This document shows positions 2,508-57,385 of a stretch of 64,000 bases of DNA, piece after piece. The translations under genes were made by a program, and so were the position numbers. This DNA comes from a virus, in the IMG/VR virus record IMGVR_UViG_3300045988_115146. One strand, 5' to 3'. The notes below the pieces were generated by a model. That model ran no database searches and was not told the DNA's origin. It worked only from the letters and a program-made list of their open reading frames with translations. The first letter of the stretch is position 1. Each line of letters begins with the position of its first letter.

Positions 2508-2508
2508 C

Positions 2509-3141: not shown

Positions 3142-3143
3142 CC

Positions 3144-3770: not shown

Positions 3771-3774
3771 AGAT

Positions 3775-5688: not shown

Positions 5689-5768
5689 ATACATATTAAA
5701 CACAAGCCATAGTTGAGTTGGTTAAGTGGGGCCGGAGTTGGGTTATGTTTAATCCTGCTCTGGCTTTT

Positions 5769-6416
5769 TTATTGTCTAAGATCTACAGCAGCTTGTTCTA
5801 AAGTTTTTTGTATGTTCTTTCTCATGTGAGAAAACATATTTACTGCAAATTTATCTCTTGGCAACTCAAAGTAATCAATCAAGTGAAGGATAGATAACTT
5901 ACCGTGTGATTCCTTTATTCTTGACTCAAACCATTTGGGAGGTTCAAGCTGTATCTTCATAACCAAATACTCATCAGGTGTAAGATGTTCTTTCATGTAT
6001 TCATGGAATCTTTGTGATTGTTCTTCCTTGATACGAGTTTCTTCTGAGTCATCAAGTAATTCCTTGTTATTATCAAATAGGACTTCAAATGAAGTTAACT
6101 CCTGATTAAATTCTGCCTGTTTAGTATAGGCATTACGCAATAACTTACTCTTGAAAGTTTGAAGGGAAGATAAAAGAGTGGCCTTTAATCTTTCTTCATC
6201 ATACTCACTTTGATATTTATTGAATACATACAAGAACTTATCCCAGAAAAAAGAGTTGATTATATCTGGTGTAACATTAAATCTTCTAGAATCTATTCCC
6301 CTTACTAATCTGCGGATTAATGGTTTACAGGTTTTATACAACCTATTAAACAAATCCTCATCATAAGGTTTTAATTCTGTCAAACGATGTAGTTCACTTC
6401 CGTTGTTGCCTTTCAT
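5769..6416 (-). CDS. Putative sigma-70/ECF-like transcription factor
   Basis: Only leftward gene in this part of the window. Region-2-like DIINSFFWDKFLYVF and region-4-like LTPDEYLVMKIQ...SILHLIDYFELPRDKFAVNMFSHMRKNIQKTL seen by eye. Confidence 0.35.
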   Translation of the reverse strand: MKGNNGSELHRLTELKPYDEDLFNRLYKTCKPLIRRLVRGIDSRRFNVTPDIINSFFWDKFLYVFNKYQSEYDEERLKATLLSSLQTFKSKLLRNAYTKQAEFNQELTSFEVLFDNNKELLDDSEETRIKEEQSQRFHEYMKEHLTPDEYLVMKIQLEPPKWFESRIKESHGKLSILHLIDYFELPRDKFAVNMFSHMRKNIQKTLEQAAVDLRQ

Positions 6417-12529: not shown

Positions 12530-12694
12530 TACGCACGCGTATGCGTATATACTTACCTGTATATCTCTATTAGTATTTTAGTATACTAAAATACTAATAG
12601 AGGTTTATATAGCTAAAGCTATATAAACTTATACTTTCTATACTTACTTTAGTAAGTCTTTAAGCTAAAGCTTAATAATGCGCACGCACGCATA
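12529..12694. repeat. Composite element copy 1: alternating Pu-Py tract + four perfect hairpins + second Pu-Py tract
   Basis: 24-nt perfect alternating purine-pyrimidine run 12529-12552. 34-nt palindrome 12567-12600. Palindrome GTTTATATAGCT-AA-AGCTATATAAAC 12603-12628. ACTTACT/AGTAAGT and TTAAGCT/AGCTTAA hairpins. 17-nt Pu-Py run 12678-12694. About 80 bp repeated at 54035. Confidence 0.9.
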
Positions 12695-12786: not shown

Positions 12787-13188
12787 ATGGCTAAGAAAAA
12801 GAAAGACAAACTTAAAGATGCCAGGGAAGAATTAGAATCAGGTGATATCCTTGAACCAATGGATATTTCTAAGTTGGGAACAAACGGAGATGTATGCTTT
12901 GGTAAGCATTATGATCTTTCAACCAAGGAATGCAAGATGTGCGGGGATTCCGAATTATGTTGTATCAAGTTCACAGATCTAATGGGTAAGACCAGAAAGG
13001 AATTAGAAGCTGATACCCAATACAAGGATTTGGAACCTTTGATTGATATGGCAGGTTGCAAGAAGTATTACCGTAAATTGGTAAGGGATAAACTTGGTAA
13101 GAGAGAAATACTTGATAAGCTTCAGAGTAGGTTTGAATTATCACGTAAAGAAGCAAGAGACTTATACCGTAAATTTAACAGTAAATAA
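12787..13188 (+). CDS. Lys-rich small protein with Cys cluster
   Basis: MAKKKKDKLKD N-terminus, CFGKH..CKMCGDSELCC cluster. No family recognised. Confidence 0.5.
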   Translation: MAKKKKDKLKDAREELESGDILEPMDISKLGTNGDVCFGKHYDLSTKECKMCGDSELCCIKFTDLMGKTRKELEADTQYKDLEPLIDMAGCKKYYRKLVRDKLGKREILDKLQSRFELSRKEARDLYRKFNSK

Positions 13189-13189
13189 C

Positions 13190-13765
13190 ATGATTCAATT
13201 AGAGTTCACAAAGATTCGGGAGGTTAAATCCCCCAACCGAGCAAACGAAGGGGATGCAGGTTTAGATTTCTATATCCCTAAGTTATCAGAAAAGGATATA
13301 CTAAGGGTGGGGGAAAAAGATTTACGTGATATGGTTGGTATCAACCGTAAGATGTATAGTAAAGGTTATATCAAGTTCAATGGTATGGGAACTGATGATC
13401 TTTATGTAATCGTTAAACCTCATGGAAGGTTGCTTATTCCATCAGGTATAAAGGTACTGATCAATCCCAAAGAGTCTATGCTAATGGCAGCAAACAAATC
13501 TGGGGTTGCTACTAAAGATGGGTTGACATTCACTGCAGAGATTGTGGATAGTCCATATACTGGTGAAATGCACATAGGTATACAAAATAATTCACCTGAA
13601 GAAGTATGGATACCTCTTCAACAGGATAAGAAGATAATGCAGTTCATACATGTTCCAATCCTACTTTCAAATCCCATAGAGATACCTAATGAGGAGTATG
13701 AAGAGAAAGCAAAGGACTGGGGAACAAGAGGAGACAAAGGATTTGGTGCACACGATAACAAATAA
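13190..13765 (+). CDS. dut: dUTP diphosphatase (trimeric dUTPase)
   Basis: AGLDFYIP, IVDSPYTGEMHIGIQN and C-terminal RGDKGFGAHD match dUTPase motifs. Start moved to the ATG at 13190, just after the upstream stop. Confidence 0.85.
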   Translation: MIQLEFTKIREVKSPNRANEGDAGLDFYIPKLSEKDILRVGEKDLRDMVGINRKMYSKGYIKFNGMGTDDLYVIVKPHGRLLIPSGIKVLINPKESMLMAANKSGVATKDGLTFTAEIVDSPYTGEMHIGIQNNSPEEVWIPLQQDKKIMQFIHVPILLSNPIEIPNEEYEEKAKDWGTRGDKGFGAHDNK

Positions 13766-13769
13766 GAAG

Positions 13770-14681
13770 ATGGACTCGAGGGACATAATTCAGGAACCTG
13801 GTATCATACCCGGTGATAAGTATTTGGAAGAGATATACTCTATGCAAAAAGAACTGTTATCTGGTTATATAGGCATAGAGGGATTACCACAATACCCAAT
13901 AGACATAAATACTAAGGCATCACAATCCTTGTTGAAGGATTTCACTGCTAGAGTGGTAGAGGAATTATCAGAGGGATATGAATCATTCCAAGCTATCAGT
14001 GAAAGTATGAGTAAAAATCATTGGAAGTTAGCTAATGGTAATTGTGAAGACTCAATCTACATTGAATTGTTAAACAATCTTCAAAATGCCAATGAAGAGA
14101 ATGCAGATGCAATACACTTCTTTGTAGAGTTGCTAATATATGCAAATGTAGGTCCAGATGACATTATGTCATATATGGAGAAGTATGCTAAGGATAATCA
14201 CTTCAATAAGATTGAAATTGATAGTTTCAATGAAATGAGAGGTGATGTATTATATACTGCTCAGAATATGGGAGTGAAATGGTTGATGGATGAGGGTAAT
14301 ATTGATGTTACACTTAATCATCAAAAGATAGATCTCTTAAAGTGGTATGAGAATAAAGATAGTGGATCTTTACCTGAATACAACATAAACTTATTAGTTG
14401 GTGGTAGGATGTATAACTATGAGGACTATGAAATTCAATATCCATACATACTGTGGAAGATAACCCATCACCTTAACATTGCTCGTAACTTTTTGAAGAA
14501 TAAGCCTTGGAAGCAATCTCAGGTAATGACTCAAGAGTTAAAGTACCAGGCTGAATTAGTGAAGGCATTCATATATTTCTGTGGATACCTTGGATGGATA
14601 GGTATGGATTCAAAGGAAGTATTCTACATCTACTTCAAAAAGAATCACATTAATATGTTCCGTCAAAAGTCGAAGTATTAA
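13770..14681 (+). CDS. All-alpha NTP pyrophosphohydrolase (MazG / dimeric dUTPase-like), tentative
   Basis: Acidic helix motifs ARVVEELSEGYESF and NANEENADAIHFFVELL plus KPWKQSQ resemble the E..E / E..D metal-binding helices of MazG/dUTPase_2 proteins. Start set at the ATG at 13770. Confidence 0.45.
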   Translation: MDSRDIIQEPGIIPGDKYLEEIYSMQKELLSGYIGIEGLPQYPIDINTKASQSLLKDFTARVVEELSEGYESFQAISESMSKNHWKLANGNCEDSIYIELLNNLQNANEENADAIHFFVELLIYANVGPDDIMSYMEKYAKDNHFNKIEIDSFNEMRGDVLYTAQNMGVKWLMDEGNIDVTLNHQKIDLLKWYENKDSGSLPEYNINLLVGGRMYNYEDYEIQYPYILWKITHHLNIARNFLKNKPWKQSQVMTQELKYQAELVKAFIYFCGYLGWIGMDSKEVFYIYFKKNHINMFRQKSKY

Positions 14682-14682
14682 T

Positions 14683-15672
14683 ATGAACATAGTAAAGAGC
14701 AATAGGCCAGTAGATGCTTGGGAGCAAATACTTGAAAATTTTTTGGTTAAGAAACCAGAATGGTTTAGTGAAGGGATAGGGTATAACTTAACCGATTCAT
14801 TATTCACTTATGATCTGGTAGTAGAGATATCAGAAGCTAAGTTTGATCCAGAATTTGATTTTGGTAAGTTATTTGGATATACAGCTACTAAGTGGACTGG
14901 ATTAATAACTAATTACCTTGATCTTGATATTCTTGATCAGGCAAAGTTAATGATAAGGAAGTTAGAGGAGAATAAGGCAGTAAATAGGAATTATCACATC
15001 GGTTTCCATTTTGCTGACAATCATGGCAGTGGAAAAGGATGCTTGGTTGGAGGTATATTCTCCCGTAAGATTGGGGTTGATAATCCTGAGGTAACAGTAA
15101 TCATACGTTCATCCGAAGTAGTTACAAGGTTGCCAATAGACATGTTGCTGTTCTGTCGTATGGGACAGTACATTTATGGTCATGATAATTTTTCATTGAA
15201 GTTAGTTATCAAGGCTGCTTGGGCAAATGATACTACCATACTTCTATATCAGAATATAAAGGACTTAAAAGAGTTCTTGAAAGAAAACTGTAATGATGAG
15301 GCTCGTAGGAAAAAGATACGTAAGTCACTGAAAAAATTAATGACAAGTGATGAGGCTAGTTATAAAACCTATGGCAACAGTTTTAGAGCTTTCAAAGTAC
15401 TTAGGAAAGATTTAGGATATAAGCAAAAATCAATGTTGGCCTCTGACTTAGAAATTGGAGATTGGGATGGAATTCCATTACCAGAGGTATGTCCATCAAT
15501 TCTAAAGCGTAACATGATAAAGAAGACATATCTTAAGTTCACAGAGAAGTATGGCCTTAAACTAAAGTTGGAAGAGAATACAGAGAAGAAAAAGAAAAAG
15601 TTGATATCATTCTCTTCACCTGATGAAGATGATATGGATGATAACGAACCAATAGCTGAGGCTAATGAGTAA
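14683..15672 (+). CDS. Thymidylate-synthase-fold protein, divergent paralog A (candidate pyrimidine C5 hydroxymethylase)
   Basis: By-eye alignment to ThyA: FGYTATKW ~ YGxQWR, GKGCLVGG ~ catalytic PCH, IIRSSEVVTRLPIDMLL ~ YQRSCDVFLGLPFNIAS (Asp replaces Asn177). Paralogous to the next ORF (DPEFDFG.., KW..LI.NY.D). Confidence 0.4.
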   Translation: MNIVKSNRPVDAWEQILENFLVKKPEWFSEGIGYNLTDSLFTYDLVVEISEAKFDPEFDFGKLFGYTATKWTGLITNYLDLDILDQAKLMIRKLEENKAVNRNYHIGFHFADNHGSGKGCLVGGIFSRKIGVDNPEVTVIIRSSEVVTRLPIDMLLFCRMGQYIYGHDNFSLKLVIKAAWANDTTILLYQNIKDLKEFLKENCNDEARRKKIRKSLKKLMTSDEASYKTYGNSFRAFKVLRKDLGYKQKSMLASDLEIGDWDGIPLPEVCPSILKRNMIKKTYLKFTEKYGLKLKLEENTEKKKKKLISFSSPDEDDMDDNEPIAEANE

Positions 15673-16450
15673 GTTAAAAGTAAAGAATAACCTGTTAGTG
15701 TTCCGAAATAGCATGAAAGCTTGGGAGGGGCTTAACAGGTTATTCTTATTCAATATTCCCGGTTTGGATATTGAAAGAATTGGTAAAGCTCAATATATAA
15801 ATGATTTGGTTATTTATATTAAAGAACCTCTAGTAGACCCGGAATTTGATTTTGGAAGGCACTTTAATTATACATCTGCTAAATGGAAATCTTTGATAGC
15901 TAATTATATAGATGAGAATTCAATGATTGATCTGAGACAAGAAGTGGTGAGATCATTGAATTCAAGAAAGATTTTCAACATAGGGTATCAGTTTGATAAT
16001 AAGCATGCACATGGAAAGAATTGTTTATTATCATTGACAGTATCAAAGAAAGCTGGTATGGATTATCCCATGATAACGGTATTCATGAGGGCTTCTGAAG
16101 TAACTAAAAGACTAATATGTGATCTTTTATTAATACAAAGAATTGGTGAATACATATTCACTGGGGATAAATTCTGTATATCAATACACTTTAGTCAGAT
16201 ATTCAATGATGATACGGTATTATTGATGTACCATGCTCATGAGGATCTATTAAAGCTTAGTGATAGAATTGGTATATATGATAGTAATTGGTATGATAGG
16301 CTGAAGTATCTACTAAAAGTAGATCCCGATAAGATAAAGTATAAGGTACATAAAAGAGCATTGAAAGTACTTAGGCCAGAATTGTTTAAGTATCCTAAAA
16401 CTCTGGCCAAGGATTGTACACTGGGTAATGAAGACTGGCTACCTTTCTAA
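15665..16450 (+). CDS. Thymidylate-synthase-fold protein, divergent paralog B
   Basis: Shares DPEFDFGRHFNYTSAKWKSLIANYID, HGKNCLLS and MRASEVTKRLICDLLL with paralog A over full length. 8-nt overlap with paralog A. Confidence 0.4.
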   Translation: MSKLKVKNNLLVFRNSMKAWEGLNRLFLFNIPGLDIERIGKAQYINDLVIYIKEPLVDPEFDFGRHFNYTSAKWKSLIANYIDENSMIDLRQEVVRSLNSRKIFNIGYQFDNKHAHGKNCLLSLTVSKKAGMDYPMITVFMRASEVTKRLICDLLLIQRIGEYIFTGDKFCISIHFSQIFNDDTVLLMYHAHEDLLKLSDRIGIYDSNWYDRLKYLLKVDPDKIKYKVHKRALKVLRPELFKYPKTLAKDCTLGNEDWLPF

Positions 16451-16494
16451 GAAAGGGAAGTCTATTGAATTGCAAACATAAAAAAATTATAACC

Positions 16495-17265
16495 ATGAGA
16501 ATATATTCAAATCCCTACGAATTGATGTCTGAGACTGCCCGTAATATATGGGAGATGGGTACAGAGGTAAAACCAAAAACTTACCAAAACAAAGTAATAG
16601 AAGGCAAAGATGAGTTCATAACTAAAGAGCTTATTTGTGAACAATATTGCTTAACTCACATGGATGATCCATCTCCATTATTTGTATTTACCAAATCTAA
16701 AGATTGGGCAGATGCCGAATTTAAAGAGAGAATTAGTGGAGTAATGGAAAATCCAGGTAAAGCTTGGGAATTACGTAAAGATATCTGGGAAGAGTTCTTA
16801 GTAAATGGGTTCTTTGATTATACCTATGCTGAACGTATGAATGAGACAGTTTCATATAAAGGCAAGGCATTTTCTAAAATAGGAGCAATTATAGAGTTGT
16901 TAAAAACAGACAACGATACTAGAAAAGCCATACTAAATATATATGGTGAGGATGGTTTTAATGAGGATTGTGATTCAAACTATCTTGGTGGTGAACATAG
17001 AATACCATGTTCAATGTATTATGATTTCCTTATCCGGGAGAATGCCAGAGGAGAAAAGCAATTAAATATTTGCTATCACCAAAGATCATCCGATTTTGTA
17101 ACTCATTTCGGAAATGATGTATATTTGGCATGGAGACTGATGGAATATGTAGCTAGTGAAGTAGGAATTAAACCTGGATATTTATATCAAACTATTGATA
17201 GTTTGCATAGCTATAAAAAAGATTGGGTAAAGTTAAAGACATCAATCCAAACTGAATTGAGATAA
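16495..17265 (+). CDS. Thymidylate synthase family enzyme (ThyA / dUMP hydroxymethylase-like)
   Basis: TRKAILNIY (SRR..w block), RIPCSMYYDF (catalytic Cys), CYHQRSSDFVTHFGNDVYLAWRLMEY (QRSxD..G.pfN) and DSLHSY (D.H.Y). Lacks the canonical DRTGTGT N-terminal block. ATG 16495 preferred over TTG 16465. Confidence 0.7.
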   Translation: MRIYSNPYELMSETARNIWEMGTEVKPKTYQNKVIEGKDEFITKELICEQYCLTHMDDPSPLFVFTKSKDWADAEFKERISGVMENPGKAWELRKDIWEEFLVNGFFDYTYAERMNETVSYKGKAFSKIGAIIELLKTDNDTRKAILNIYGEDGFNEDCDSNYLGGEHRIPCSMYYDFLIRENARGEKQLNICYHQRSSDFVTHFGNDVYLAWRLMEYVASEVGIKPGYLYQTIDSLHSYKKDWVKLKTSIQTELR

Positions 17266-17348: not shown

Positions 17349-17425
17349 GGGCCCATAGCTCAGTTGGTAAGAGCAGCGGACTCATAATCCGAAGGTCGGG
17401 GGTTCAAGCCCCTCTGGGCCCACCA
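17349..17425 (+). tRNA. tRNA-Met (or Ile2) anticodon CAT, CCA encoded
   Basis: Cloverleaf folded by hand: acceptor GGGCCCA/TGGGCCC, D arm GCTC..GAGC, anticodon loop CTCATAA, T arm GGGGG-TTCAAGC-CCCTC, ACCA end. G1-C72 argues for an elongator type. Confidence 0.85.
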
Positions 17426-17524
17426 AAGATTTTCTCTTATTTTCTTATTTTGTGCGTGGACAATACAAACAGTCCTGGTAAATTCGAAGGTACTAGACAG
17501 TAGTGATACAGGCTAGTACCAATT

Positions 17525-17599
17525 ACGGGAGTAGCACAGTCAGGTTAGTGTACTTGCTTTGGGAGCAAGTGGTCGCAGGTTCGAATCCTGTCTCCCGTA
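17525..17599 (+). tRNA. tRNA-Pro anticodon TGG
   Basis: Acceptor ACGGGAG/CTCCCGT, anticodon stem CTTGC/GCAAG with loop TTTGGGA, T arm GCAGG-TTCGAAT-CCTGT. Confidence 0.85.
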
Positions 17600-17612
17600 C
17601 ATATTAGTAAAG

Positions 17613-17695
17613 GCTCGGATGGAGAAATAGGTAAACTCATCAGATTTAAGCTCTGACGGTCATTGACCTTGCGGGTTCGACTCCCGCTCCGAGTA
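17613..17695 (+). tRNA. tRNA-Leu anticodon TAA (class II, long variable arm)
   Basis: Acceptor GCTCGGA/TCCGAGT, anticodon stem TCAGA/TCTGA with loop TTTAAGC, variable arm GGTC-ATT-GACC, T arm GCGGG-TTCGACT-CCCGC. Confidence 0.8.
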
Positions 17696-17719
17696 CATAG
17701 TATCAAATACTCTTGTCTT

Positions 17720-19403: not shown

Positions 19404-20972
19404 ATGGAGTCAAGATATGCCATAATAAAGAGTTTTTCACAGGTTAAGAAACTTGTGAAAGCTTGTTTGAAGACAGGTATAGCTTCAATAGACTATGAGA
19501 CTAATGCTGAAGGCATATACAATAAAACATTTAGACCAACAATTCTATCAGTAACTTTCCAGGTTGGTTCTGGAGTATCTATTCCATTATGTCATCATGA
19601 ATATGATAACCCTCATTGGAAAAAATGGCTTCTATACTTTGGTAGAAAAGTAGTTGAGAATCCAAAAGTAACTAAAGTAGGTTGGAATCTGAAGTTTGAC
19701 CTTCAGATATTCGAGTTGTATGGTATATATGTAAGAGGTACAGTACTTGATGGTATGTTAATGAAGTATCTCTTAAATGAAGAGAAACCAAATGACCTTA
19801 AATCAATGGTTCGTAGGTATTTACCAGAACACGGAGATTACGAAAAAGCTGATAAGTTTGATAAGATACCATGGAATAAAAAGCCACTGGAACCACTCTG
19901 CAAATATGGATGTCAAGATACCGATTATACCCTACGATTATCTATGTTCTTTGAGAACAAATTGATAGAAATAGGTATGTATCCATTATTAAGGCATCTG
20001 ATAATGCCAGCATCAAGAGTATTACAGCATGCAGAGAAAACTGGTTTATACCTTGATAGGAAATTCAATCAGGAATTACTTGAATCTTACAAGCCAAAGA
20101 TTGATCAAGCAACTTTAAATTGCTTGAATCTTCCCAGAGTTAAAAGATTCTCTAGATGGCTTATCCAAGAAAGAATAAGCAAATACATTTCTTCAATTGA
20201 AATGGAACTTGAAGACTTGGATTATAGTGATCCAAAAAATGCAAGGAAGATAGCTAGCAGGGAACAAAAAATATCTAACATAAGAGCTGGTGTATATACA
20301 ACCAAGAAAGAATTAGAATTAACCCGTGATATAAATCTTGGTAGTAAAGTAGACTTACCAATGTTGTTATATTCTGAAAAGGGGTTCAAATTCCCTATTA
20401 TAAAATATACGAAGGATAAGACTACAAATCGTGATACTGATAAGCCGAGTACTGATGAGGATACATTGGTAGAACTTCGGTTGTCAATTAAGAATCCCGA
20501 AAGTCCCAAAGCAATATTCTTGGATAATCTACTCAAGTTGAGAGGATTGAAGAAGATGTACACTACATATATAAAAGGGTGGCACGATAAAGTACAGGAT
20601 GATAATAAATTACATGGAAGATTTTTGATACATGGAACAACTAGCGGGAGATTGAGTTGCATAGGCGGAGATACAAAAGTATTAACTCAATATGGAGAAA
20701 TACCAATTATAGATATTAAGGATTGGATTGGTGAAGGATTATGTGCCATGACTAAAGATGGGTGGCAATTAATAGAAAACTTCATATATAAGGGTGTTGA
20801 TGATATGTATGAAGTAACACTTGAAGATGGTACTTCTATTCAATGTACTTTAGATCATAAATTTATAACTAATAAAGGTACTAAAAGATTAAGGGAAATT
20901 TACAATAAATACCGAAATACTATTGATTCTAAAATTAAACTTTTAAGATATGTCCCAGACTACGAACAATAG
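19404..20972 (+). CDS. Family A DNA polymerase, N-terminal fragment (3'-5' exonuclease + palm start) fused to split-intein N half
   Basis: Exo I SIDYET, Exo II WNLKFD, Exo III YGCQDTDY. Extein ends HGTTSGRLS at 20657. Then CIGGDTKVLT...TLDH... (104 aa, intein blocks A/B) and TAG. Confidence 0.85.
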   Translation: MESRYAIIKSFSQVKKLVKACLKTGIASIDYETNAEGIYNKTFRPTILSVTFQVGSGVSIPLCHHEYDNPHWKKWLLYFGRKVVENPKVTKVGWNLKFDLQIFELYGIYVRGTVLDGMLMKYLLNEEKPNDLKSMVRRYLPEHGDYEKADKFDKIPWNKKPLEPLCKYGCQDTDYTLRLSMFFENKLIEIGMYPLLRHLIMPASRVLQHAEKTGLYLDRKFNQELLESYKPKIDQATLNCLNLPRVKRFSRWLIQERISKYISSIEMELEDLDYSDPKNARKIASREQKISNIRAGVYTTKKELELTRDINLGSKVDLPMLLYSEKGFKFPIIKYTKDKTTNRDTDKPSTDEDTLVELRLSIKNPESPKAIFLDNLLKLRGLKKMYTTYIKGWHDKVQDDNKLHGRFLIHGTTSGRLSCIGGDTKVLTQYGEIPIIDIKDWIGEGLCAMTKDGWQLIENFIYKGVDDMYEVTLEDGTSIQCTLDHKFITNKGTKRLREIYNKYRNTIDSKIKLLRYVPDYEQ

Positions 20973-22004
20973 GCAAAAGGTATTCAAAGATAAATCTATC
21001 AACGGTCCAAGGAGAAAATTAAAGTTAATAGTAGAGGATGGTAAAAGATATATAAAGAAAGAAGATCTTTTACATTACTTCTTTCAAGAGAATTGGAATA
21101 TAGAAGACTTTAATTATCATTTTGGCATTGGTCATAGGATAGTGAGAGGTTCTCTATATAAATGGTTTACTAGGGAAGAAATAGAGGAATCTCATAGAAA
21201 GAAGATTGCTAATAAACAGATTGGTAGTAATAATTCTAATAGGATTAATTGGTATAAACCCCGTAAGCTTATACCTTTATTGGATTTAGAAGAAGCCGTT
21301 AAAAAATCTACTTGTAAACAGGATTTGAAGGAGAGACTACAATTAACTTCTTGGGAATTGTCACACATACAACAGTTCTATAACTTTAAACTACCAAATA
21401 GATCTCCTTTACTTAATACTAAACTACAGTATTCTCTTTCTAGATGTGATATAAAACTTTTATGTAAAGTTATTACTGGAATGGGATGGGAAGATGTATT
21501 TTTCTATAATACTCCTAAGGCTATCTATAAAATGGATTGTCTTATTTGGGAACTTAGGAAGATAAATCGTTCTTTGAGGAGAGCTTTTAGGAAACAGATA
21601 GTAGATAATGGTATTAAGTTTCCTACAAATTTGATAGAGTATAAATTTCACAAAGCTCTAGAAAAAATGGATATAGAGCATGAAATACAATATTATATAC
21701 CAGAACATAATATACATCTAGACTTTTTAATAAAAGGTCATTACAACTTGGAATTAGATGGAAATTTGCATGAAGAAGAAGCAGATAGTGGTAGAGACCG
21801 TATTCTCAAATCTCTTGGCTATAAAATTATAAGACTAGATTTAAAATCTCTAAATCTTACTAGATTCTCAAAAGAAAAGGAGGTAAGGAAATGTATAAAG
21901 AAATTGGTATTACCAAAGTTAAACCAATAGGTAAGAAAGGTGTATATGATTTATCCGTTATGAACTGTCATCAGTTTGTGGCTAATAATATCCTAAATCA
22001 TAAT
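20658..22004 (+). mobile_element. Split intein (IntN 20658-20969, IntC 21891-22004) with an embedded free-standing endonuclease gene
   Basis: Inserted in the invariant GRLS|S..PNLQ motif. 1347 nt (449 codons), so both polymerase halves share one frame. IntC ends VANNILNHN followed by Ser. Confidence 0.8.
20950..21930 (+). CDS. Free-standing homing endonuclease, Vsr/DUF559-like PD-(D/E)XK domain
   Basis: Different frame from the polymerase halves and overlaps both. C-terminus HEIQYYIPEHNIHLDFLIKGHYNLELDGNLHEEEADSGRDRILKSLGYKIIRLD matches the Vsr-like ..DF....l.iE.DG..H...D..Rd..L...G...iR pattern. Confidence 0.65.
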   Translation: MSQTTNNRQKVFKDKSINGPRRKLKLIVEDGKRYIKKEDLLHYFFQENWNIEDFNYHFGIGHRIVRGSLYKWFTREEIEESHRKKIANKQIGSNNSNRINWYKPRKLIPLLDLEEAVKKSTCKQDLKERLQLTSWELSHIQQFYNFKLPNRSPLLNTKLQYSLSRCDIKLLCKVITGMGWEDVFFYNTPKAIYKMDCLIWELRKINRSLRRAFRKQIVDNGIKFPTNLIEYKFHKALEKMDIEHEIQYYIPEHNIHLDFLIKGHYNLELDGNLHEEEADSGRDRILKSLGYKIIRLDLKSLNLTRFSKEKEVRKCIKKLVLPKLNQ

Positions 22005-23045
22005 TCTCAAGAACCAAACTTACAGCAAATCCCAAAGACTTCAGTAGACCCAAATATAAAGAAGCAATTAGTAGCCCCAGATGGTAAGTTGTACATGGCT
22101 CTTGACTACTCTCAAGCAGAGTTAAGAATCATGGCTCATCTGTCTGGGGATGAAACATATCTTGAGGCTTTTGCAAAAGGTCAGGATCCTCACCTTGCTA
22201 TTGCAGCAAAGAAGTATGGGGTATCATATGAGGAAGCATATAAAGCTTACAGTGATGAACAACACCCAGATCATAATCTTTGGAAGAACCGAAGAAAGCA
22301 GGCAAAACAGATTTGCTTCGGTATTATCTATGGTATTCAGAAGAAACTGCTTGCAGTTAAATTGTCAGATCCAAAAGCTGGTATTATTGTAACACCAGAT
22401 GAAGCTCAGCAGCAGTTAAATGAATTCTTCTATGAACATCCTAAGATTAAAAAGTTCATGATTCATCAAGAAAAGGTATTGATTAAGCATGGGTATATAA
22501 AATCTTTGTTCGGAAGAAAGAGAAGGTTACCTCAGGTATATTCCGATAATGAACAAGAAGCAGCATACGCAGTACGATTATCTGTTAATATGCCATGTCA
22601 ATCAGCAGCATCTGATATGAACTTATTTGCTTCAGTATTAAACTATTGGAAAATGAGACAAGGTAAGTTGCCATTTATGCAAGAGACTTGTAATGTTCAC
22701 GATGCTACCTACTATTTGGTGAGGCCAGAATATATAAATACATGGGTAGTACATGAAATATGGGAAACTTGTCGTAACCCTAATACAAAAGAATATTTTA
22801 ACTTTCAGATAGACGACGTCAATATGAGCATGGATTTTGTTATAGGACGTTCAATGGCAGAGGAATTACCATTTATACCCGGTTATGATTATAGGAAAAT
22901 GCTTAAACCAGATTTTAATCCAGATGAGTACTTAGAAGAACATCGTAAGTACAGAGGTATTGAAATAGAAGATTACCCTAAGTTGTATCCAGAAGAGATA
23001 GCTAGGAATAAAATGGAATTTGAGAAAAGGATATATGAAAGGTAA
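21891..23045 (+). CDS. Split-intein C half fused to family A DNA polymerase C-terminal fragment
   Basis: 38-aa IntC, then SQEPNLQQIP. Motif A LDYSQAELRIMAH, motif B RRKQAKQICFGIIYG, motif C NVHDATY. AAGGAGGT at 21877-21884 upstream of the ATG. Confidence 0.85.
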   Translation: MYKEIGITKVKPIGKKGVYDLSVMNCHQFVANNILNHNSQEPNLQQIPKTSVDPNIKKQLVAPDGKLYMALDYSQAELRIMAHLSGDETYLEAFAKGQDPHLAIAAKKYGVSYEEAYKAYSDEQHPDHNLWKNRRKQAKQICFGIIYGIQKKLLAVKLSDPKAGIIVTPDEAQQQLNEFFYEHPKIKKFMIHQEKVLIKHGYIKSLFGRKRRLPQVYSDNEQEAAYAVRLSVNMPCQSAASDMNLFASVLNYWKMRQGKLPFMQETCNVHDATYYLVRPEYINTWVVHEIWETCRNPNTKEYFNFQIDDVNMSMDFVIGRSMAEELPFIPGYDYRKMLKPDFNPDEYLEEHRKYRGIEIEDYPKLYPEEIARNKMEFEKRIYER

Positions 23046-46848: not shown

Positions 46849-46998
46849 ATGAAAACGAAAACATTTAAGATCTCTAGAGAAAAGGCAATCATAATTGCTT
46901 CCAACCACAACAACATCCCTCTAGAAAAAGCTAAATCCTATACCGATTCCGAACTAAGAGAGGTACTAAGACATCTGAACCTTAAACCAGGATTCTAA
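46849..46998 (+). CDS. Small protein (49 aa), below ORF-track cutoff
   Basis: MKTKTFKISREKAIIIASNHNNIPLEKAKSYTDSELREVLRHLNLKPGF, 3 nt after the upstream stop. Confidence 0.4.
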   Translation: MKTKTFKISREKAIIIASNHNNIPLEKAKSYTDSELREVLRHLNLKPGF

Positions 46999-47189
46999 TA
47001 CCCAACAGTAATACATCATCCCCCCCAAAACAAATATAACCATAAAAAGGCCTCTAATCAAATAAAGGATCCCAATCACTTAAAGGCCATAACTAATACC
47101 CACCATCCCCAAACAAAGAAAAATACCAAAATTAATAAATTAAATCATAACCTCAATCCATAATACAAAGGATCAATATAATAAATCAT

Positions 47190-47239
47190 ATATAAGGCTT
47201 TTAGGTTTATATCTTAGAGGCCTTATATTTGTTTTTTTT
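47190..47239 (+). terminator. Terminator-like hairpin with T8 tract
   Basis: ATATAAGGC / GCCTTATAT 9-bp stem (21-nt loop), followed by TTGTTTTTTTT. Confidence 0.5.
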
Positions 47240-47527
47240 AGTTTACCCATATATGAAAAGAGAATAGGATAACAGTATTCAAATGATAGATAAAGAATAG
47301 CTTTTATTCATGGGCCTTATAGGTAAGGATAATAATGGGTCCGGGAACTTGGGATGAAGTCGAAATTTCGCCAGGGCCATAAAATCAGGGGGTGGGAAAT
47401 TTTGGGTAGTTAGGTTATCCTACCAATTCACTGTGTACCATACGAGCTCTTGAGCTATCTTGGTTACTATACGTATTAGCTACTACGACTTAAGGCCCAA
47501 ATAGCATTAGACTGGACCAAAAGGCAT

Positions 47528-47543
47528 TTTAAGGTACCTTAAA
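47528..47543. repeat. Iteron-like palindrome copy A (TTTAAGGTACCTTAAA)
   Basis: Perfect 16-bp palindrome with a GGTACC core. Confidence 0.9.
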
Positions 47544-47550
47544 GAGCTAT

Positions 47551-47565
47551 TTTAGGGTACCCAAA
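47551..47565. repeat. Iteron-like copy B (TTTAGGGTACCCAAA)
   Basis: GGGTACCC core, 8 nt after copy A. Confidence 0.8.
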
Positions 47566-47583
47566 CCATTGCCTTTTCAAGTC

Positions 47584-47613
47584 TATATTATATAATATAT
47601 AAGTCTTTTAAGG
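47584..47613 (+). repeat. AT-rich unit + AAGTCTTTTAAGG, copy 1
   Basis: TATATTATATAATATATAAGTCTTTTAAGG. A related unit lies at 47760-47796. Confidence 0.8.
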
Positions 47614-47712
47614 TTAAGGATTAGGCTACCAACTAAGGCTCTTTATCTAAAGAGACATATAGCCTACTATATGGTCTATACTTGAGATATATGAAGATCT
47701 TCATAAAGTACA

Positions 47713-47727
47713 TTTAGGGTACCTTAA
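47713..47727. repeat. Iteron-like copy C (TTTAGGGTACCTTAA)
   Basis: Preceded by ACA, as in copy D. Confidence 0.85.
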
Positions 47728-47759
47728 TGGGCCTTAATCCCAAGCCTTAAAGAATACTT

Positions 47760-47796
47760 TATATTATATTATATATAATATGCGAGTCTTTTAGGG
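47760..47796 (+). repeat. AT-rich unit + GAGTCTTTTAGGG, copy 2
   Basis: TATATTATATTATATATAATATGCGAGTCTTTTAGGG. Confidence 0.8.
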
Positions 47797-47872
47797 GATT
47801 TTTGAACTGGTGTCTAAAATAGATATGCCAGGAATAGAGTATCTGAGCTTTTATGTTTCAAGTTAAGGCACA

Positions 47873-47887
47873 TTTAAAGTACCTTAA
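47873..47887. repeat. Iteron-like copy D (TTTAAAGTACCTTAA)
   Basis: One mismatch in the core (AGTACC). Confidence 0.8.
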
Positions 47888-47936
47888 TACAGCATTCAAG
47901 GCCTTAAAAGGTCCTAACCTGGGCCTGGAATATTTA

Positions 47937-47968
47937 TTTGCATATATTATATAATTATATTATATTTG
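47937..47968 (+). promoter_or_regulatory. Bacteroidota sigma-A type promoter
   Basis: TTTGCA 47937, 20-nt spacer, TATATTTGCA 47961. ATG 48015. Confidence 0.7.
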
Positions 47969-48014
47969 CATTGTGAAAAAAAAATAAATATTAACCAATT
48001 AAAAAGCAAAGGCC

Positions 48015-48419
48015 ATGAAAACTCTTGAAAACTACAAATTCGAAACCAACACTAATCCTGGGGAAAATCTCTTGGGCTTTATCCAGGGGCAAATCAGACA
48101 ATATATTATTCCAGATGGGTCTTATAGCCAACTATTATCTATTACTCTATATTCCGAGAGAAACATCTCTTCTATTGTACTTAACTCGGATATGACCGAT
48201 ATACACTTTATCCTGACCCCAAAGGTAAGTGTCCCTTATCAAGTCCTAAAAGCCATCTGTAAAGAAATTATGGAGGCCCTTAATGAAGAAATCTTCGATG
48301 GATTCCTGGATGCCAAAACAGTAGGCAATATGATCACCTATTCAGCTGGTCTTGATAATGGGTCCACTATGGTAGGGATTATCAATGAAGAGCTTAGTTT
48401 TAATATTTGCTTAATGTAG
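48015..48419 (+). CDS. Hypothetical protein
   Basis: 134-aa ORF after a promoter. Confidence 0.5.
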   Translation: MKTLENYKFETNTNPGENLLGFIQGQIRQYIIPDGSYSQLLSITLYSERNISSIVLNSDMTDIHFILTPKVSVPYQVLKAICKEIMEALNEEIFDGFLDAKTVGNMITYSAGLDNGSTMVGIINEELSFNICLM

Positions 48420-48443
48420 GGCTTATATAATACAGAAGAGACT

Positions 48444-48788
48444 ATGATACCTTATAGATTAACCCTTGGGGAATATCGAGATGAAGACCAAACCAAGGAA
48501 TGGATCGATTCGCTTATAACTCAAGAAAATCTCCCCACTATCCTTACCCACTATGATTTTTTGAACTACCGATATTTTAGGCAGGATAAGGATCTGGATG
48601 GGAGGCCTAACCACCATATCTTTACCTTCTCACCAAAGGATAAGAGCCAAATCACTCCTCAAAGATTTGAGTACATTGAAAAGGAACTGGATAGAAAGAC
48701 CCTTATAACCGATCCTCTAGAAGATGACCAGGATTGGACATTACTCAACAATGGATGTATCATAATTTGCATCCGATCCACAGATTAG
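48444..48788 (+). CDS. Hypothetical protein
   Basis: 114-aa ORF followed by a terminator. Confidence 0.5.
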   Translation: MIPYRLTLGEYRDEDQTKEWIDSLITQENLPTILTHYDFLNYRYFRQDKDLDGRPNHHIFTFSPKDKSQITPQRFEYIEKELDRKTLITDPLEDDQDWTLLNNGCIIICIRSTD

Positions 48789-48814
48789 AAAAAAACTTTG
48801 CTTTCATAATTGCC

Positions 48815-48849
48815 GGGAGGTATGCCAACTATGGGTATGCCTCCCTTTC
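48815..48849 (+). terminator. Rho-independent terminator
   Basis: GGGAGGTATGCC / GGTATGCCTCCC 12-bp stem (G-U pairs), 7-nt loop, then TTTC. Confidence 0.65.
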
Positions 48850-48875
48850 GGCTTATAAGGCCTTAGGAAAAATAG

Positions 48876-48890
48876 ATTAAGGTACCCAAT
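48876..48890. repeat. Iteron-like copy E (ATTAAGGTACCCAAT)
   Basis: Same GGTACC-core motif as 47528-47887. Located next to the TAAGGCCTTA palindrome at 48856. Confidence 0.75.
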
Positions 48891-49276
48891 GGTGCCATAT
48901 CCTGATCCTATATTAAATTTTTATTCAGTGCAATGCAAATAAGGTGTAATGCAATGCAAGCAATGGCATATCATAGAACTTTACAATTAATAAGACAAGT
49001 ATTTAGTTATTTATAAATATATGATACTCTAGATATATGGGGACAAAGGCTAAAAATGAAGATGAACATTAAAGGCCTAGTTATTGGACTATTCTGTACC
49101 TCAGGGTGCCAGCTAAGGCCATAATTGTATCAGACCATATACCAACAAACCAACTTATCATCATGGATCATTAAACAGACCTACTGCCTGAACCTAAACC
49201 GATTATTTTGTATAGTTAAAATTGATCTAAATAAATACTATTATAAGAAAAAATAATCAAAATTTATGTCTAAAAA

Positions 49277-49308
49277 TTTGCATTAAAAAAAATTCAATAG
49301 TATATTTG
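49277..49308 (+). promoter_or_regulatory. Bacteroidota sigma-A type promoter
   Basis: TTTGCA 49277, 20-nt spacer, TATATTTGCA 49301. ATG 49358. Confidence 0.7.
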
Positions 49309-49357
49309 CAATATAGAAAAGAACAAAGCATTTTATTAACCTTTAATTTTTACTATT

Positions 49358-49862: not shown

Positions 49863-49864
49863 AG

Positions 49865-49895
49865 AAATAGGGGGCATAATTTGTCCCCTATTTTT
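49865..49895 (+). terminator. Rho-independent terminator
   Basis: AAATAGGGG / CCCCTATTT 9-bp stem, then TT. Confidence 0.7.
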
Positions 49896-50131
49896 AATTA
49901 ATTTTAATTTTGCGATAGGGACACCGTGTGCCTTTTTTACTGCCAGATGTTTTAGGCTCCTCGCATTAAAGGCTCCCATGAAGGGCCATAATTTTACTGC
50001 TAGCTCCAAAATAAACCCAGTGATAAAGCTCATAATAAGGGAATTGATCACTACCCCCCTTCCCCACACAAAATGAAGAACCTATCTAAAGGCTCTTCAT
50101 AAAATTTTTCAGGATATTTTTATGGCTCCTA

Positions 50132-53992: not shown

Positions 53993-54005
53993 TCAAGCCC
54001 CCTAT

Positions 54006-54125
54006 CGCGTATACGCATACGTATAAGGAGAATTCTATTAGTATTTTAGTATACTAAAATACTAATAGAAGTTTATATAGCTTTAGCTATATAAACATAT
54101 ACTTTGTTCTATAGTAGTATTCTTA
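54006..54125. repeat. Composite element copy 2: alternating Pu-Py tract + the same two palindromes
   Basis: 20-nt perfect alternating Pu-Py run 54006-54025. A 34-nt palindrome identical to copy 1 at 54035-54068. GTTTATATAGCT-TT-AGCTATATAAAC at 54071-54096 (centre AA becomes TT). Similarity continues to about 54115. Confidence 0.9.
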
Positions 54126-54152
54126 TTCTTTCTAGATTAAGACTTACTTCTT

Positions 54153-54175
54153 TAATCCCCCCTATAATCCCCCCT
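54153..54175 (+). repeat. Direct repeat TAATCCCCCCT x2
   Basis: 54153-54163 and 54165-54175. C6 runs are conspicuous in this AT-rich sequence. Confidence 0.85.
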
Positions 54176-54201
54176 TAATGGTTTCATAAAATCTCAATCA
54201 C

Positions 54202-54862: not shown

Positions 54863-57385
54863 ATGGCAAGAAAGAAGACATTACTAGAAGGAGATACAAA
54901 TATTACACCAGAACAACTTAAGACCTTGGTCCGTGTGATGAAGGATCCATTCTTCTTTTCTACTTTCTGCTATGTTATCAACCCTGTGTTGGGTATGGTT
55001 AAGTTCTTGCTATATCCATTTCAGAAAGCAGTACTATACCAATTCATGCTGAACAGGTTCAATATCATCCTTAAATTTCGTCAGGCTGGTATTACAGAGT
55101 TGATATCCATGTATTGTCTCTGGTTAGCAATGTATCACCCAAACAAGAAGATAAACATCATCTCGATCAAAGATACTGTAGCAAAGAAGGTACTGAAGAA
55201 GATCAAGTTTATGTACAAGAATCTTCCTTCATATCTACAAGAACCAATTATAAACGGTCGTACTGGAGAATTTGGTTCTGTATCAACAATAGAATTTGCA
55301 AATGGCTCCATAATTGAGTCTATACCAACATCAGATCAAGCAGGTCGTTCTGAATCTTTGTCGTTGTTGGTAATTGATGAGGCAGCAATTGTAAGATGGG
55401 CTTCAACGATATGGGCATCGGCATTCCCCACATTGAGCTGTATATCAGGGAGTTACGAAATATTACTTACTAAAAATCTCTATCGGAAAAATATAGAAGG
55501 TAATAAAAAAGGTCTACAGGCTTTTCTTAAGCCTATAAAAGAATTAGCTCCAGATGAAATAGGAGTAAGAGATTTAAGAAAAGAGAAGTTATATACTCTA
55601 ACTCATACTGGAACTTGGAAACAAGTATTGGATGCTGTATATAAAGGAAAGCTTTTAACTTGGGAGGTAGAAGACAATAGAGGTAAAATTTTAGATTGTA
55701 CTCCTAAACACCGCTTATTAACTCCACAAGGCTGGAGGACAGTATCTGATATTGTTAAGTATGGCCTAAAAATAGTTCAGGTAGATACCAAATACGATTC
55801 TATAGGTAATACGATTTTAGTAAAACCACCAAAGAAAGTAGTATTCAAGCCATTGTTTACTTTTGGCAAGTTCAAATATCAAATAACTAACTTTGGTAAA
55901 GTATATAAAGTTGGTAGTAATGGTGAAAGGACTGAAGTAAGAATAAGAGTACACAAAGGATATAATACTCTTACACTATTCTCTAAGTTAGAGGGTGGTA
56001 CTAAGAATTGGAAAGTATCTAGATTAGTATATGAAACATTTATTGGTTCAGTACCAGATGGTATGGTAATTGACCATATCAATAATAATCCTCTTCAGGA
56101 TTGGGTAACTAATTTGAAGTGTGTAACCAATTCAGAGAATATAAAGAAGTCATATAATACTAATTTATCTCACGTTACCTCTTTATCTGGTTATCCGATA
56201 GAATTACATTCTAAGGTATTACACACATTAGATTTGAATCCTGGTAAGAGTGACCAAGAAGTTAAAGAAGTATTAGCTAAACAGGGATTAAATATAAGTA
56301 GGAAAAGTATAGGTAATATACGAAGAAATTCTAAAGTATATCTATCAAAATTAACCGTAAACCGAGAGTATGTAACAGACATATATGATATACATGTAGA
56401 AGGGGATCACTCATATATACTACCAACTTGTAACTTTGTAAATCATAACACTGGCGGTTCAGCTATCGTAAATAGCACGCCCTACGGAGTCGGGAACTTC
56501 TTCCACGGTGCTTGGGTAGATGCTATAGCTGGTGGTAATCCTCTTAATCCAATACGACTTTATTGGCAGATGCATCCAGATAGAGATCAGAAGTGGTATG
56601 AGGAGATGTCTACTGCTCTTGGTCCAAAGAGAACTGCTCAGGAGATTGATGGTGACTTCCTATCATCTGGTAATACAGTATTTGATTTAGTTGATATTAA
56701 GGCTATAGAAGAGTGCTTATCTGACTATCCCATTATCAATACACGTTTGAAAGGTCAGTATAAGGAATTCAATGAGCCTGATCCAAACAAAGAGTATTTC
56801 ATTGGTGGTGACTGTGCAACTGGTAGAGGTACTGACTACTCAGCTTTTACTTGTATGGATAGAGATGGAGAAGAGTCTGCAGTATACAAGGGTAGAATAC
56901 CTTTGAACAAATATGCTCGTTTACTTGGTGATATCGGAGAAAAGTATAACTTTGCTAAGCTAGCTCCAGAGACTAATGATGTTGGTATGGCTGTAACAAC
57001 TATACTCCAAGATGAAGGTTATCCAAACCTATACTTCTATACTAAATTGTTAAGGAAGAAACGTCACAGTCGTCCAGAAGAAGAGAAGTTCCCGGGTTGG
57101 TTAACAACCGCAAAGAATAGGTCAGTAATTGTAGAGAATCTTGAAAAGGATATAAGGGAAAACAATGTGGTAATTAAAGATCCGTTCTTTGTTCAAGAGG
57201 CTTATACCTTCATATATGATGGTGCAGGAAGACCCATTGCACGAGGTAAACATAGAATGAGTACCTCATCTATGGATATTGACTTAGAGGGTGAAACATA
57301 TTCCGATGACTCCATATTCGGTAAAGCCATAACAAATCACATCAGATGTCATAGTGCATCATCAACTGTGGTTATTCCTCAGTAG
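54863..57385 (+). CDS. terL: Terminase large subunit, interrupted by an intein
   Basis: FRQAGITE (Walker A position), LLVIDEAA (Walker B). After the intein, TGGSAIVNSTPYG (motif III), then a C-terminal nuclease-type domain (GGDCATGRGTDYSAF). Confidence 0.8.
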   Translation: MARKKTLLEGDTNITPEQLKTLVRVMKDPFFFSTFCYVINPVLGMVKFLLYPFQKAVLYQFMLNRFNIILKFRQAGITELISMYCLWLAMYHPNKKINIISIKDTVAKKVLKKIKFMYKNLPSYLQEPIINGRTGEFGSVSTIEFANGSIIESIPTSDQAGRSESLSLLVIDEAAIVRWASTIWASAFPTLSCISGSYEILLTKNLYRKNIEGNKKGLQAFLKPIKELAPDEIGVRDLRKEKLYTLTHTGTWKQVLDAVYKGKLLTWEVEDNRGKILDCTPKHRLLTPQGWRTVSDIVKYGLKIVQVDTKYDSIGNTILVKPPKKVVFKPLFTFGKFKYQITNFGKVYKVGSNGERTEVRIRVHKGYNTLTLFSKLEGGTKNWKVSRLVYETFIGSVPDGMVIDHINNNPLQDWVTNLKCVTNSENIKKSYNTNLSHVTSLSGYPIELHSKVLHTLDLNPGKSDQEVKEVLAKQGLNISRKSIGNIRRNSKVYLSKLTVNREYVTDIYDIHVEGDHSYILPTCNFVNHNTGGSAIVNSTPYGVGNFFHGAWVDAIAGGNPLNPIRLYWQMHPDRDQKWYEEMSTALGPKRTAQEIDGDFLSSGNTVFDLVDIKAIEECLSDYPIINTRLKGQYKEFNEPDPNKEYFIGGDCATGRGTDYSAFTCMDRDGEESAVYKGRIPLNKYARLLGDIGEKYNFAKLAPETNDVGMAVTTILQDEGYPNLYFYTKLLRKKRHSRPEEEKFPGWLTTAKNRSVIVENLEKDIRENNVVIKDPFFVQEAYTFIYDGAGRPIARGKHRMSTSSMDIDLEGETYSDDSIFGKAITNHIRCHSASSTVVIPQ
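55439..56449 (+). mobile_element. Intein (337 aa) with an internal HNH endonuclease domain
   Basis: Starts CISGSYEILL after AFPTLS. Block B TPKH. HNH_3-like VIDHINNNPLQDWVTNLKCVTNSEN. Ends DHSYILPTCNFVNHN followed by Thr. Confidence 0.8.

Follow-up and report, generated by a model that had tools for sequence, protein, structure and literature searches.

The 64-kb stretch of viral DNA analysed here (IMG/VR record IMGVR_UViG_3300045988_115146; hereafter the window) represents the greater part of a phage genome of ~77-80 kb, in which almost all genes are encoded on the + strand. Here, we examined a gap in this gene array, at positions 46999-48014, which an earlier reading of the bare sequence (the original prediction) had proposed to be a replication origin or a dense operator array. 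We find that it is a noncoding DNA control region conserved among related uncultured phages of the human gut, most likely one that switches nearby early genes. To our knowledge, nothing has been established about the origins, regulators or early-gene control of such phages, and the literature yielded no paper that names the related record MT121964 or mentions the motifs in a phage context.

Layout and motifs of the region

As the original prediction had noticed, neither strand of the region carries an open reading frame (ORF) of 60 or more amino acids (aa), the longest ones reaching 37 and 33 aa. Just upstream lies a conserved 49-aa ORF (46849-46998), whose product gives a SAP/LEM (helix-extension-helix) DNA-binding-like signal below threshold (E about 0.03). 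The skewed composition described for the tract behind this ORF is indeed pronounced, with 49% A, 26% C, 5% G and 20% T in 46999-47189, compared with 36/15/20/29% (A/C/G/T) in the window. Among relatives, the tract varies in length or is partly deleted, with its C-rich, G-poor character kept even in a distant one (L078), and, judging by its composition, which resembles a Rho-utilization site, it may be rut-like. The terminator-like hairpin with its T tract that had been reported next coincides with a predicted intrinsic terminator, conserved at 91-95% column identity across 35 relatives (35 distinct homologous regions, aligned after a blastn comparison of the region with 80 related loci; a MAFFT alignment underlies part of this comparison, and its register is uncertain in the variable segments).

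When motif frequency was compared with background, as the original prediction had proposed, the enrichment was strong. The half-site, which is more correctly described as the hexamer or heptamer (T)TTARGG, is present in ~20 copies, which form palindromes (spacer of 2 or 0 bp) as well as triplets in direct and inverted orientation. Exact TTARGG/CCYTAA copies number 14 in 47170-47935, where the remainder of the window would predict 0.80 (P=2e-13), and 10 of them fall within one 300-nucleotide (nt) stretch, whereas no other 300-nt stretch of the window holds more than three. The GGTACC motif noted at four places corresponds to the 14-nt TTTARRGTACCYWA, all four window copies of which are in the region (47528, 47551, 47713 and 47873), the first of them within a perfect 16-bp palindrome; TATATTATAT is likewise confined to it, with five copies. 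GGCC occurs there 10 times (1.06 expected), RGGCCTTA five times (0.01 expected), and four of the window's eight GGCCTTA copies belong to it. The earlier tally of about ten GGCC-type sites holds for GGCC itself but is slightly generous for the longer motif, because only ~7-8 of them have the AAGG/CCTT flank. Equally real are the direct half-site triplet and the pairing of TA runs with a box: the only two copies of AGTCTTTTARGG in the window (47602 and 47785) each stand right after a TA-only run. The two longest A/T-only runs of the window both lie in the region (26 nt at 47942 and 24 nt at 47758; the third run has 19 nt). Two further corrections to the earlier description concern an additional, third TA run at 47942-47967, which is the spacer of a canonical Bacteroidetes-type promoter, and the GGCC and GGTACC sites, which recur in a second small array downstream of the cassette.

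These elements are ordered. The stretch 47505-48014 consists of three collinear units (A, B and C), in each of which CATTTARRGTACCTTAA palindrome(s) are followed by a GGCCTTA-type box, a TA-only run and a further box downstream. The TA run of unit C separates, as spacer, the -33 TTTG (47937) from the -7 TATATTTG (47961) of promoter P47937, which has the form TTTG-N20-TATATTTG, lies 47 nt upstream of the cassette ATG at 48015, and is kept in relatives with a GCCT box ~15-17 nt upstream of its -33 element. At the corresponding positions, units A and B carry AAGTCTTTTAAGG and ATATGCGAGTC-TTTTAGGGG in place of promoter boxes and are devoid of TTTG/TAnnTTTG; unit B nonetheless shares GCCTTAAAGAATA with the sequence just upstream of -33 in the relatives' promoters. 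Since TA runs A and B thus occupy the promoter-spacer position of unit C, the comparison suggests that they were derived from promoter spacers. Behind TA run A stand three direct half-sites, and ahead of TA run B three opposed ones, with a variable segment centred between them, and the half-sites after palindrome 3 form an imperfect inverted repeat with 47605-47626.

Table 1. Features of the region, of its downstream neighbourhood and of the window at large
Feature	Position	Strand	Details
A+C-rich, G-poor 3' untranslated tract	46999-47189	+	follows the stop codon of the 49-aa ORF
Intrinsic terminator	47190-47239	+	16-pair stem (47190-47228), 7-nt loop, then TTGTTTTTTTT; ends the upstream operon
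Single-copy conserved core, part 1	47373-47500		invariant boxes GGCCATAAAATC, ACTGTGTACC, GAGCT/AGCTATCT, GTTACTATACGTAKTAGCTA, GACTTARGGCCC
Two GGTACC-centred palindromes	47528-47543, 47551-47566		the first perfect over 16 bp; centres 23 bp apart
Flanks of the palindrome pair	47519-47526, 47570-47577		AAAAGGCA and TGCCTTTT, respectively
Unit A	47584-47625	+	TA-only run 47584-47602; box AAGTCTTTTAAGG 47601-47613; direct half-sites TTTTAAGG-TTAAGG-ATTAGG 47606-47625
Conserved block	47626-47664		contains CTAAGGC and AAAGAGAC; column identity 0.90-0.92
Variable segment	47665-47707		three unrelated versions among relatives; column identity 0.65-0.67
Palindrome 3	47713-47728		followed by opposite-orientation half-sites CCTTAA, CCCAAG, CCTTAAA (47732-47751)
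Unit B	47758-47870	+	TA-only run 47758-47781; box ATATGCGAGTC-TTTTAGGGG 47778-47797; best-conserved stretch 47798-47870
Unit C operator-like array	47873-47911		palindrome 4 (47873-47888), AAGGCCTTAAAAGG (47898-47911)
Promoter P47937, Bacteroidetes housekeeping type	47937-47968	+	-33 TTTG 47937-47940; -7 TATATTTG 47961-47968
Swappable accessory-gene cassette	48015-48850	+	ORFs 48015-48419 and 48444-48788; terminator hairpin ~48815-48850
Second small array	48855-48890		ATAAGGCCTTAGG ... TTAAGGTACCC; at the start of the conserved noncoding zone 48877-49357
Baseplate module	44-5688
Replication/recombination module	6.5-31 kb		DnaB-like helicase, primase, split DNA polymerase, SSB, UvsX-like recombinase, exonuclease, SbcCD-like, RusA-like
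Many small genes of unknown function	35-53 kb
Cytosine methyltransferase gene	53000
Large terminase, portal, protease, major head protein	54.8-62 kb
Large terminase gene	54863-57385		840 aa

P47937 is one of nine near-identical promoters in the window, which follow the pattern TTTGCA-N18-TTATATTTGCA. A -33 TTTG combined with a -7 TAnnTTTG is the housekeeping promoter architecture of Bacteroidetes (PMC4747536), and on the strength of this match the phage host is probably a member of the Bacteroidetes.

The relatives place the region in a wider pattern of arrays and exchangeable genes. The two cassette ORFs have no PHROG or Pfam family match, and in most close relatives the slot is filled by an unrelated segment of ~0.34-1.2 kb, with homology ending at palindrome 4 or at the GGCC box and starting again from the TTAAGGTACC site (48877). 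Ahead of the promoter, the window has a single palindrome/GGCC unit, the shortest version, and relatives have two to four or more palindrome units, one of these relatives (L011) having a 33-bp unit in tandem repeats at the unit C array. Moreover, the relatives' promoters located 4-7 kb upstream of the methyltransferase gene have GGTACC/GGCC arrays within 130 nt upstream (on average 0.4-1.9 boxes of each type per promoter, the backgrounds being 0.04 and 0.06), whereas their promoters farther from that zone are free of such arrays. MT121964 contains three successive array-promoter-gene-terminator cassettes, and it is 94% identical to the window over the zone 48877-49357.

The larger ORF-poor zone 48789-49357, likewise 94% identical to MT121964, is ~71% identical in more distant relatives, though its flanking genes are unrelated; it opens with AAGGCCTT and TTAAGGTACC sites, ends in a promoter at 49277 and shows no unusual RNA fold (z=0.08). 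The MT121964 record (L002) begins inside the studied region, at ~47711 of the window, and ends inside the second copy of a duplicated promoter and leader (1560-1650 and 2920-3001) equivalent to that at 44047 of the window; evidently, repeats broke its assembly.

Conservation of a noncoding element

The element is carried by at least 50 IMG/VR contigs, and a 20-mer from its core was found exactly once in each of 51 viral contigs. By blastn, identity over 47373-48021 is 70-77% for phages with a methyltransferase protein of 84-89% identity and 80-99% for closer relatives. The alignment resolves highly conserved blocks, namely the terminator, GGCCATAAAATC, 47430-47500, 47553-47664 and 47708-47870, the last of which includes 47760-47859 with a column identity of 95-99%. 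Between these blocks, the segments 47385-47430, 47500-47550 and 47665-47707 vary, are deleted or exist in more than one form, and short segments in alternative versions also separate the invariant boxes of core part 1. Motif positions are more often identical than neighbouring non-motif positions (0.79 versus 0.64, P=6e-5). Unit A is conserved, as are the four dyad-symmetric GGTACC palindromes, the second (47551) being kept in 30 of 35 relatives and the first (47528) having been lost in one group (L016). As had been supposed, the region is a noncoding cis element rather than a chance gap; its motifs are enriched and have been retained in evolution.

The core boxes occur once per locus, and ATATGCGAGT once per genome, with a single exception: one relative (L022) has, at its positions 4700-6000, the entire module once more, in strongly diverged form. 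This copy keeps the order of the short motifs (ACTGTGTACC, GAGCTC, TTTTAGGGTACC, TA run, AGTCT, TAAGGCC, TAATGGTACC, AGGCCTAAAG, TA run, ATATGCGAGTA, GTTAAGGTACCTAAG) but differs in the spacers, as expected for binding sites. Beyond this range of divergence, profile hidden Markov models of the core blocks (nhmmer) found no match in relatives with a methyltransferase of 47-67% identity; an analogous zone in the distant L078 contains AGGTACCT, ATGGCC and TA-run motifs. A host or prophage origin of the element was rejected, since a degenerate 30-nt core pattern met only three, evidently mis-binned, contigs of metagenome-assembled genomes among 185,579 species genomes, and so was an invertible promoter, no inverted version of any segment being present in the 35 relatives.

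The region appears to be a control element acting in cis at the level of DNA, with no sign of a protein gene and no support for a gene for a structured RNA. Five of the six frames contain TAA, TAG and TGA, and the sixth, without TGA, has 19 TAA and four TAG; in the alignment of relatives, substitutions are equally frequent in all three codon phases. Coding by the standard or by a recoded genetic code was rejected on these two grounds. One 13-codon frame (ATG at 47825) is constant in length among relatives, but its changes are mostly non-synonymous, and we treat it as not real.

A structured RNA, named in the original prediction as an outcome that would speak against its reading, was looked for by sequence and fold analysis and found no support. 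In Rfam, the region gave nothing at the gathering threshold and, in a search up to E<=10, only chance-level matches (E 0.04-4.7); the only matches above threshold in the window are three tRNAs at 17.3-17.7 kb. The conserved blocks are no more stably folded than shuffled sequences on either strand (z from -1.2 to +0.9). For the conserved stretch of unit B, z is -0.85, and RNAalifold gave -5.8 kcal/mol with a covariation term of 0.05 and no compensatory pair (21 distinct sequences); for core part 1, the values are -9.1 kcal/mol, 0.01 and one compensatory pair (29 distinct sequences), to be read with the limited power for detecting covariation among such close relatives. Only the whole 697-nt stretch folds better than its shuffles (z=-3.8, from 20 shuffles only), which is due to the DNA palindromes, the self-complementary TA runs and the long imperfect inverted repeat (47605-47626 versus 47731-47752). 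Across relatives, 71% of the cells of this repeat are Watson-Crick pairs, against 10-54% in slid controls, but its substitutions are uncompensated, and it is therefore the motif rather than the pairing that is conserved. Accordingly, neither the two best-conserved blocks nor the long inverted repeat is taken to have a conserved RNA structure. A candidate helix CUGG/CCAG within 47445-47490 does not hold up, as its two sides recombine freely among relatives, and no complementary target for an antisense RNA was found elsewhere in the window.

A proposed protein-binding control region and competing explanations

The many short motifs in direct and inverted arrangement would be read most economically as a platform for a sequence-specific DNA-binding protein, and the reading we favour, with a probability of about 0.4, is a multi-site protein-binding control region for the early cassettes. 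It is preferred because arrays recur at the relatives' promoters, the units appear to be promoter-derived and nothing specific to an origin was found. In this reading, the upstream operon ends in the G-poor tract and the intrinsic terminator, and the single-copy core follows as three collinear promoter-derived units, of which unit C is a working-type Bacteroidetes promoter driving the strain-variable cassette. One sequence-specific protein, probably encoded by the phage, would bind the half-sites, and the multi-site nucleoprotein complex so formed would switch the zone's early accessory-gene promoters on or off; the binding, the protein and the direction of regulation are what we infer. Units A and B, having lost TTTG/TAnnTTTG and carrying AGTCTTTTARGG and ATATGCGAGTC, might act as non-canonical or decoy promoter sites in this complex.

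Among the operator arrays known to control strong early phage promoters are the phi29 p4/p6 control region, the Aca-repressed anti-CRISPR promoters and lambda OR/OL. With these, the region shares clustered dyad sites at promoters of early accessory genes, an arrangement that implies cooperative binding at multiple sites. It differs from them in having far more sites (~20 in 400 bp), in mixed arrangements and with a variable distance between palindrome and promoter.

Several observations weigh against the control-region reading. No cognate DNA-binding protein was found, the neighbouring ORFs being without a match to helix-turn-helix, ribbon-helix-helix or similar families. In relatives, the spacing between GGTACC palindrome and promoter is not fixed, and in the window only one of the two local promoters has an array within 130 nt. 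Furthermore, neither the best-conserved 100 nt (47760-47859) nor the single-copy core boxes are built from the half-site, so that an operator model leaves both unexplained. Two further ideas were rejected. The product of the upstream 49-aa ORF, the only lead to a binder, was not accepted as such, given its sub-threshold SAP/LEM signal, the lack of PDB support and the absence of its gene from some relatives that possess the module. The boxes bear a superficial likeness to promoters of T7-like or N4-like phage RNA polymerases but occur nowhere else in the window, and no phage RNA polymerase or sigma factor was detected among the proteins scanned.

The foremost competitor is an origin of replication, in which the half-site arrays would be iterons for an origin-binding protein and the TA runs DNA-unwinding elements, or else an R-loop origin of the T4 type, primed from a promoter-like unit beside an unwinding element; we regard it as a serious but less probable alternative. 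Iteron-type origins have repeated or dyad sites next to an easily melted A/T stretch, and at the sequence level the cluster of 14 exact half-sites and four GGTACC palindromes does represent such repeated sites. The geometry is suggestive as well: two palindromes 23 bp apart lie beside TA run A, inverted half-site triplets each abut a TA run and bracket the centre, and of the longest A/T-only runs of the window one (unit B) is in the single-copy core and the other is the P47937 spacer. An origin would also account for what operators alone do not explain, namely a core that is single-copy, constant in orientation and extremely conserved without a coding or RNA-structure signal. The upstream terminator insulates the region, the cumulative GC skew peaks at 45-46 kb, and the T4-like replication/recombination set without a recognizable initiator fits a transcription- or R-loop-type origin. 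However, the TA runs align with the promoter spacer, the longest lying within a canonical promoter, and in relatives the arrays recur at several promoters. Of the original prediction, the noncoding cis element with enriched, retained motifs is supported, while these points count against a classic origin architecture. There is, in addition, no DnaA box between 46434 and 54504 and no initiator family among the 69 proteins scanned, the replication genes are 12-40 kb away, and the skew is confounded by gene orientation and an atypical gene block.

Among known origins, lambda ori and the origins of Staphylococcus aureus pathogenicity islands (SaPI) and lactococcal phages likewise have several close repeated or dyad sites beside an A/T-rich stretch in noncoding phage DNA, but here DnaA boxes and an initiator gene containing or adjoining the region are lacking, the A/T runs are in promoter-spacer position and the sites are also found at other promoters. 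In T4, oriF and oriG consist of a promoter and a downstream unwinding element, with R-loop priming. Promoter-like units with an easily melted element are common to both, as is a set of UvsX, gp46/47-like and helicase/primase proteins; units A and B, in contrast, are without host promoter boxes, and no MotA-like activator or box was identified. We consider it unlikely that the core is a promoter-derived origin of a new type, in which units A and B would be former host-type promoters, since converted, and a TTARGG-binding phage protein, the same that would act at the neighbouring cassette-promoter arrays, would open the TA runs or drive R-loop priming, coupling the shut-off of early genes to the start of replication.

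More doubtful still are genes for non-coding RNAs or a long regulatory leader, with units A and B as non-canonical promoters and transcripts of ~47613-47700 and ~47797-47870 acting as small RNAs by base-pairing and not through their structure. The promoter-like architecture of both units, the 95-99% conservation of the stretch after the unit B box and the low z-score of the whole 697-nt stretch (-3.8, 20 shuffles) would agree with small RNAs, and, no terminator being predicted in 47240-48014, a transcript would run into the cassette. But the z-score is explained by uncompensated DNA palindromes and TA runs, the individual blocks have no significant z-scores and a covariation of ~0, Rfam has no credible match even up to E<=10, no TTTG/TAnnTTTG promoter precedes these blocks, and the window offers no complementary target.

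Improbable, too, is a packaging or genome-end site, be it pac or cos, a terminal-repeat boundary or a T5-like injection-stop signal. The P1 pac site has hexamer repeats to either side of a centre, and many repeats and palindromes are present in the injection-stop region of T5. The symmetric hexamer arrays around the centre of our region recall the former, and its location between a long unidirectional operon and early-type cassettes would be apt; in a hand tally of the true contig ends up to 10 kb from the methyltransferase gene, roughly 27 in all, ~8 lie in it. These ends, however, are scattered over 47119-47811, and their surplus is most readily attributed to assemblies breaking at repeats, TA runs and strain-variable cassettes. 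No near-complete contig carries a copy of the core at each end, the large terminase gene is 7 kb downstream, and it is a different palindrome-rich intergenic region that directly precedes the packaging and structural genes. The region resembles both in being noncoding, P1 pac in its hexamer repeats and the T5 region in its repeats and palindromes, but it is not beside terminase genes, shows no evidence of fixed ends and has unrelated motifs.

The last alternative concerns recombination. In T4-type phages, promoter-early stem-loop (PeSL) cassettes are small composite terminator/promoter motifs repeated in hyperplastic regions, where the boundaries of indels and replacements coincide with them (PMC2839356, PMC4122927). 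Here, similarly, conserved early promoter and terminator repeats flank small, highly variable early genes; unlike PeSLs as described, the region has an extra 500-nt single-copy core and a hexamer/palindrome array, and promoter and terminator are 400-700 nt apart. A mere recombination scaffold, whose promoter, terminator and palindrome repeats would serve as homology patches for cassette swaps without a dedicated protein, has this precedent (PMC2839356, PMC4122927) and is in keeping with the replacement of cassette P47937-48877 by unrelated ~0.34-1.2 kb in close relatives, with junctions at palindrome 4/GGCC box and TTAAGGTACC 48877, with palindrome units deleted in the window and tandemly amplified in L011, and with the duplicated 44047 promoter of MT121964, but it is the least probable of all, as it explains neither the strong purifying selection on the 500-nt core nor the enrichment of one specific hexamer in many orientations, and is compatible with a regulatory function rather than exclusive of it.

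The region is a useful handle on this lineage and contains no new principle. Its 16-bp palindrome and hexamer provide a bait for the cognate protein (TTTAAGGTACCTTAAA, AAGGCCTTAAAAGG and the triplet TTTTAAGGTTAAGGATTAGG), the window supplies a set of exact promoter sequences for an uncultured gut-phage lineage, and the cassette is a clearly bounded slot for strain-to-strain exchange of accessory genes, possibly ones for host takeover or anti-defence.

The phage and other features of the window

The phage belongs to an uncultured myovirus-like lineage that is recurrent in human-gut viromes. Its relatives are many in IMG/VR, and in GenBank comprise only two faecal metagenomic contigs, unannotated or barely annotated.

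A 28-bp exact palindrome, TTAGTATTTTAGTATACTAAAATACTAA, for which no copy is expected by chance, occurs twice in the window, at 12570-12597, after the helicase gene, and at 54038-54065, within the intergenic stretch 53993-54201. The latter copy is just upstream of the packaging and structural genes and beside two further palindromes, and 53993-54201 is a candidate late-operon control or packaging site, a better one for either role than the region studied here.

The terminase gene product has an HNH-endonuclease segment (~aa 250-490) between its ATPase (aa 12-213) and nuclease (aa 636-790) parts, with junctions (..TLS|CISGSYE.. and ..VNHN|TGGS..) that are intein-like in appearance. The DNA polymerase (19404-23045) is encoded in two separate ORFs (19404-20972 and 21891-23045), which correspond to successive portions of a single PHROG profile and have an unannotated 326-aa ORF between them.

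Genes for dUTPase-like, NTP-pyrophosphohydrolase-like and thymidylate-synthase-like proteins cluster at 13094-17265, with the three tRNA genes adjoining (17349-17696); this cluster hints at a modified nucleotide pool or modified DNA. In the otherwise + strand genome, 50100-52920 is a block of small genes on the minus strand, bounded by convergent terminators near 49863-50100. Several related contigs terminate ~2 kb upstream of the methyltransferase gene, which suggests a second assembly-break or variable spot.

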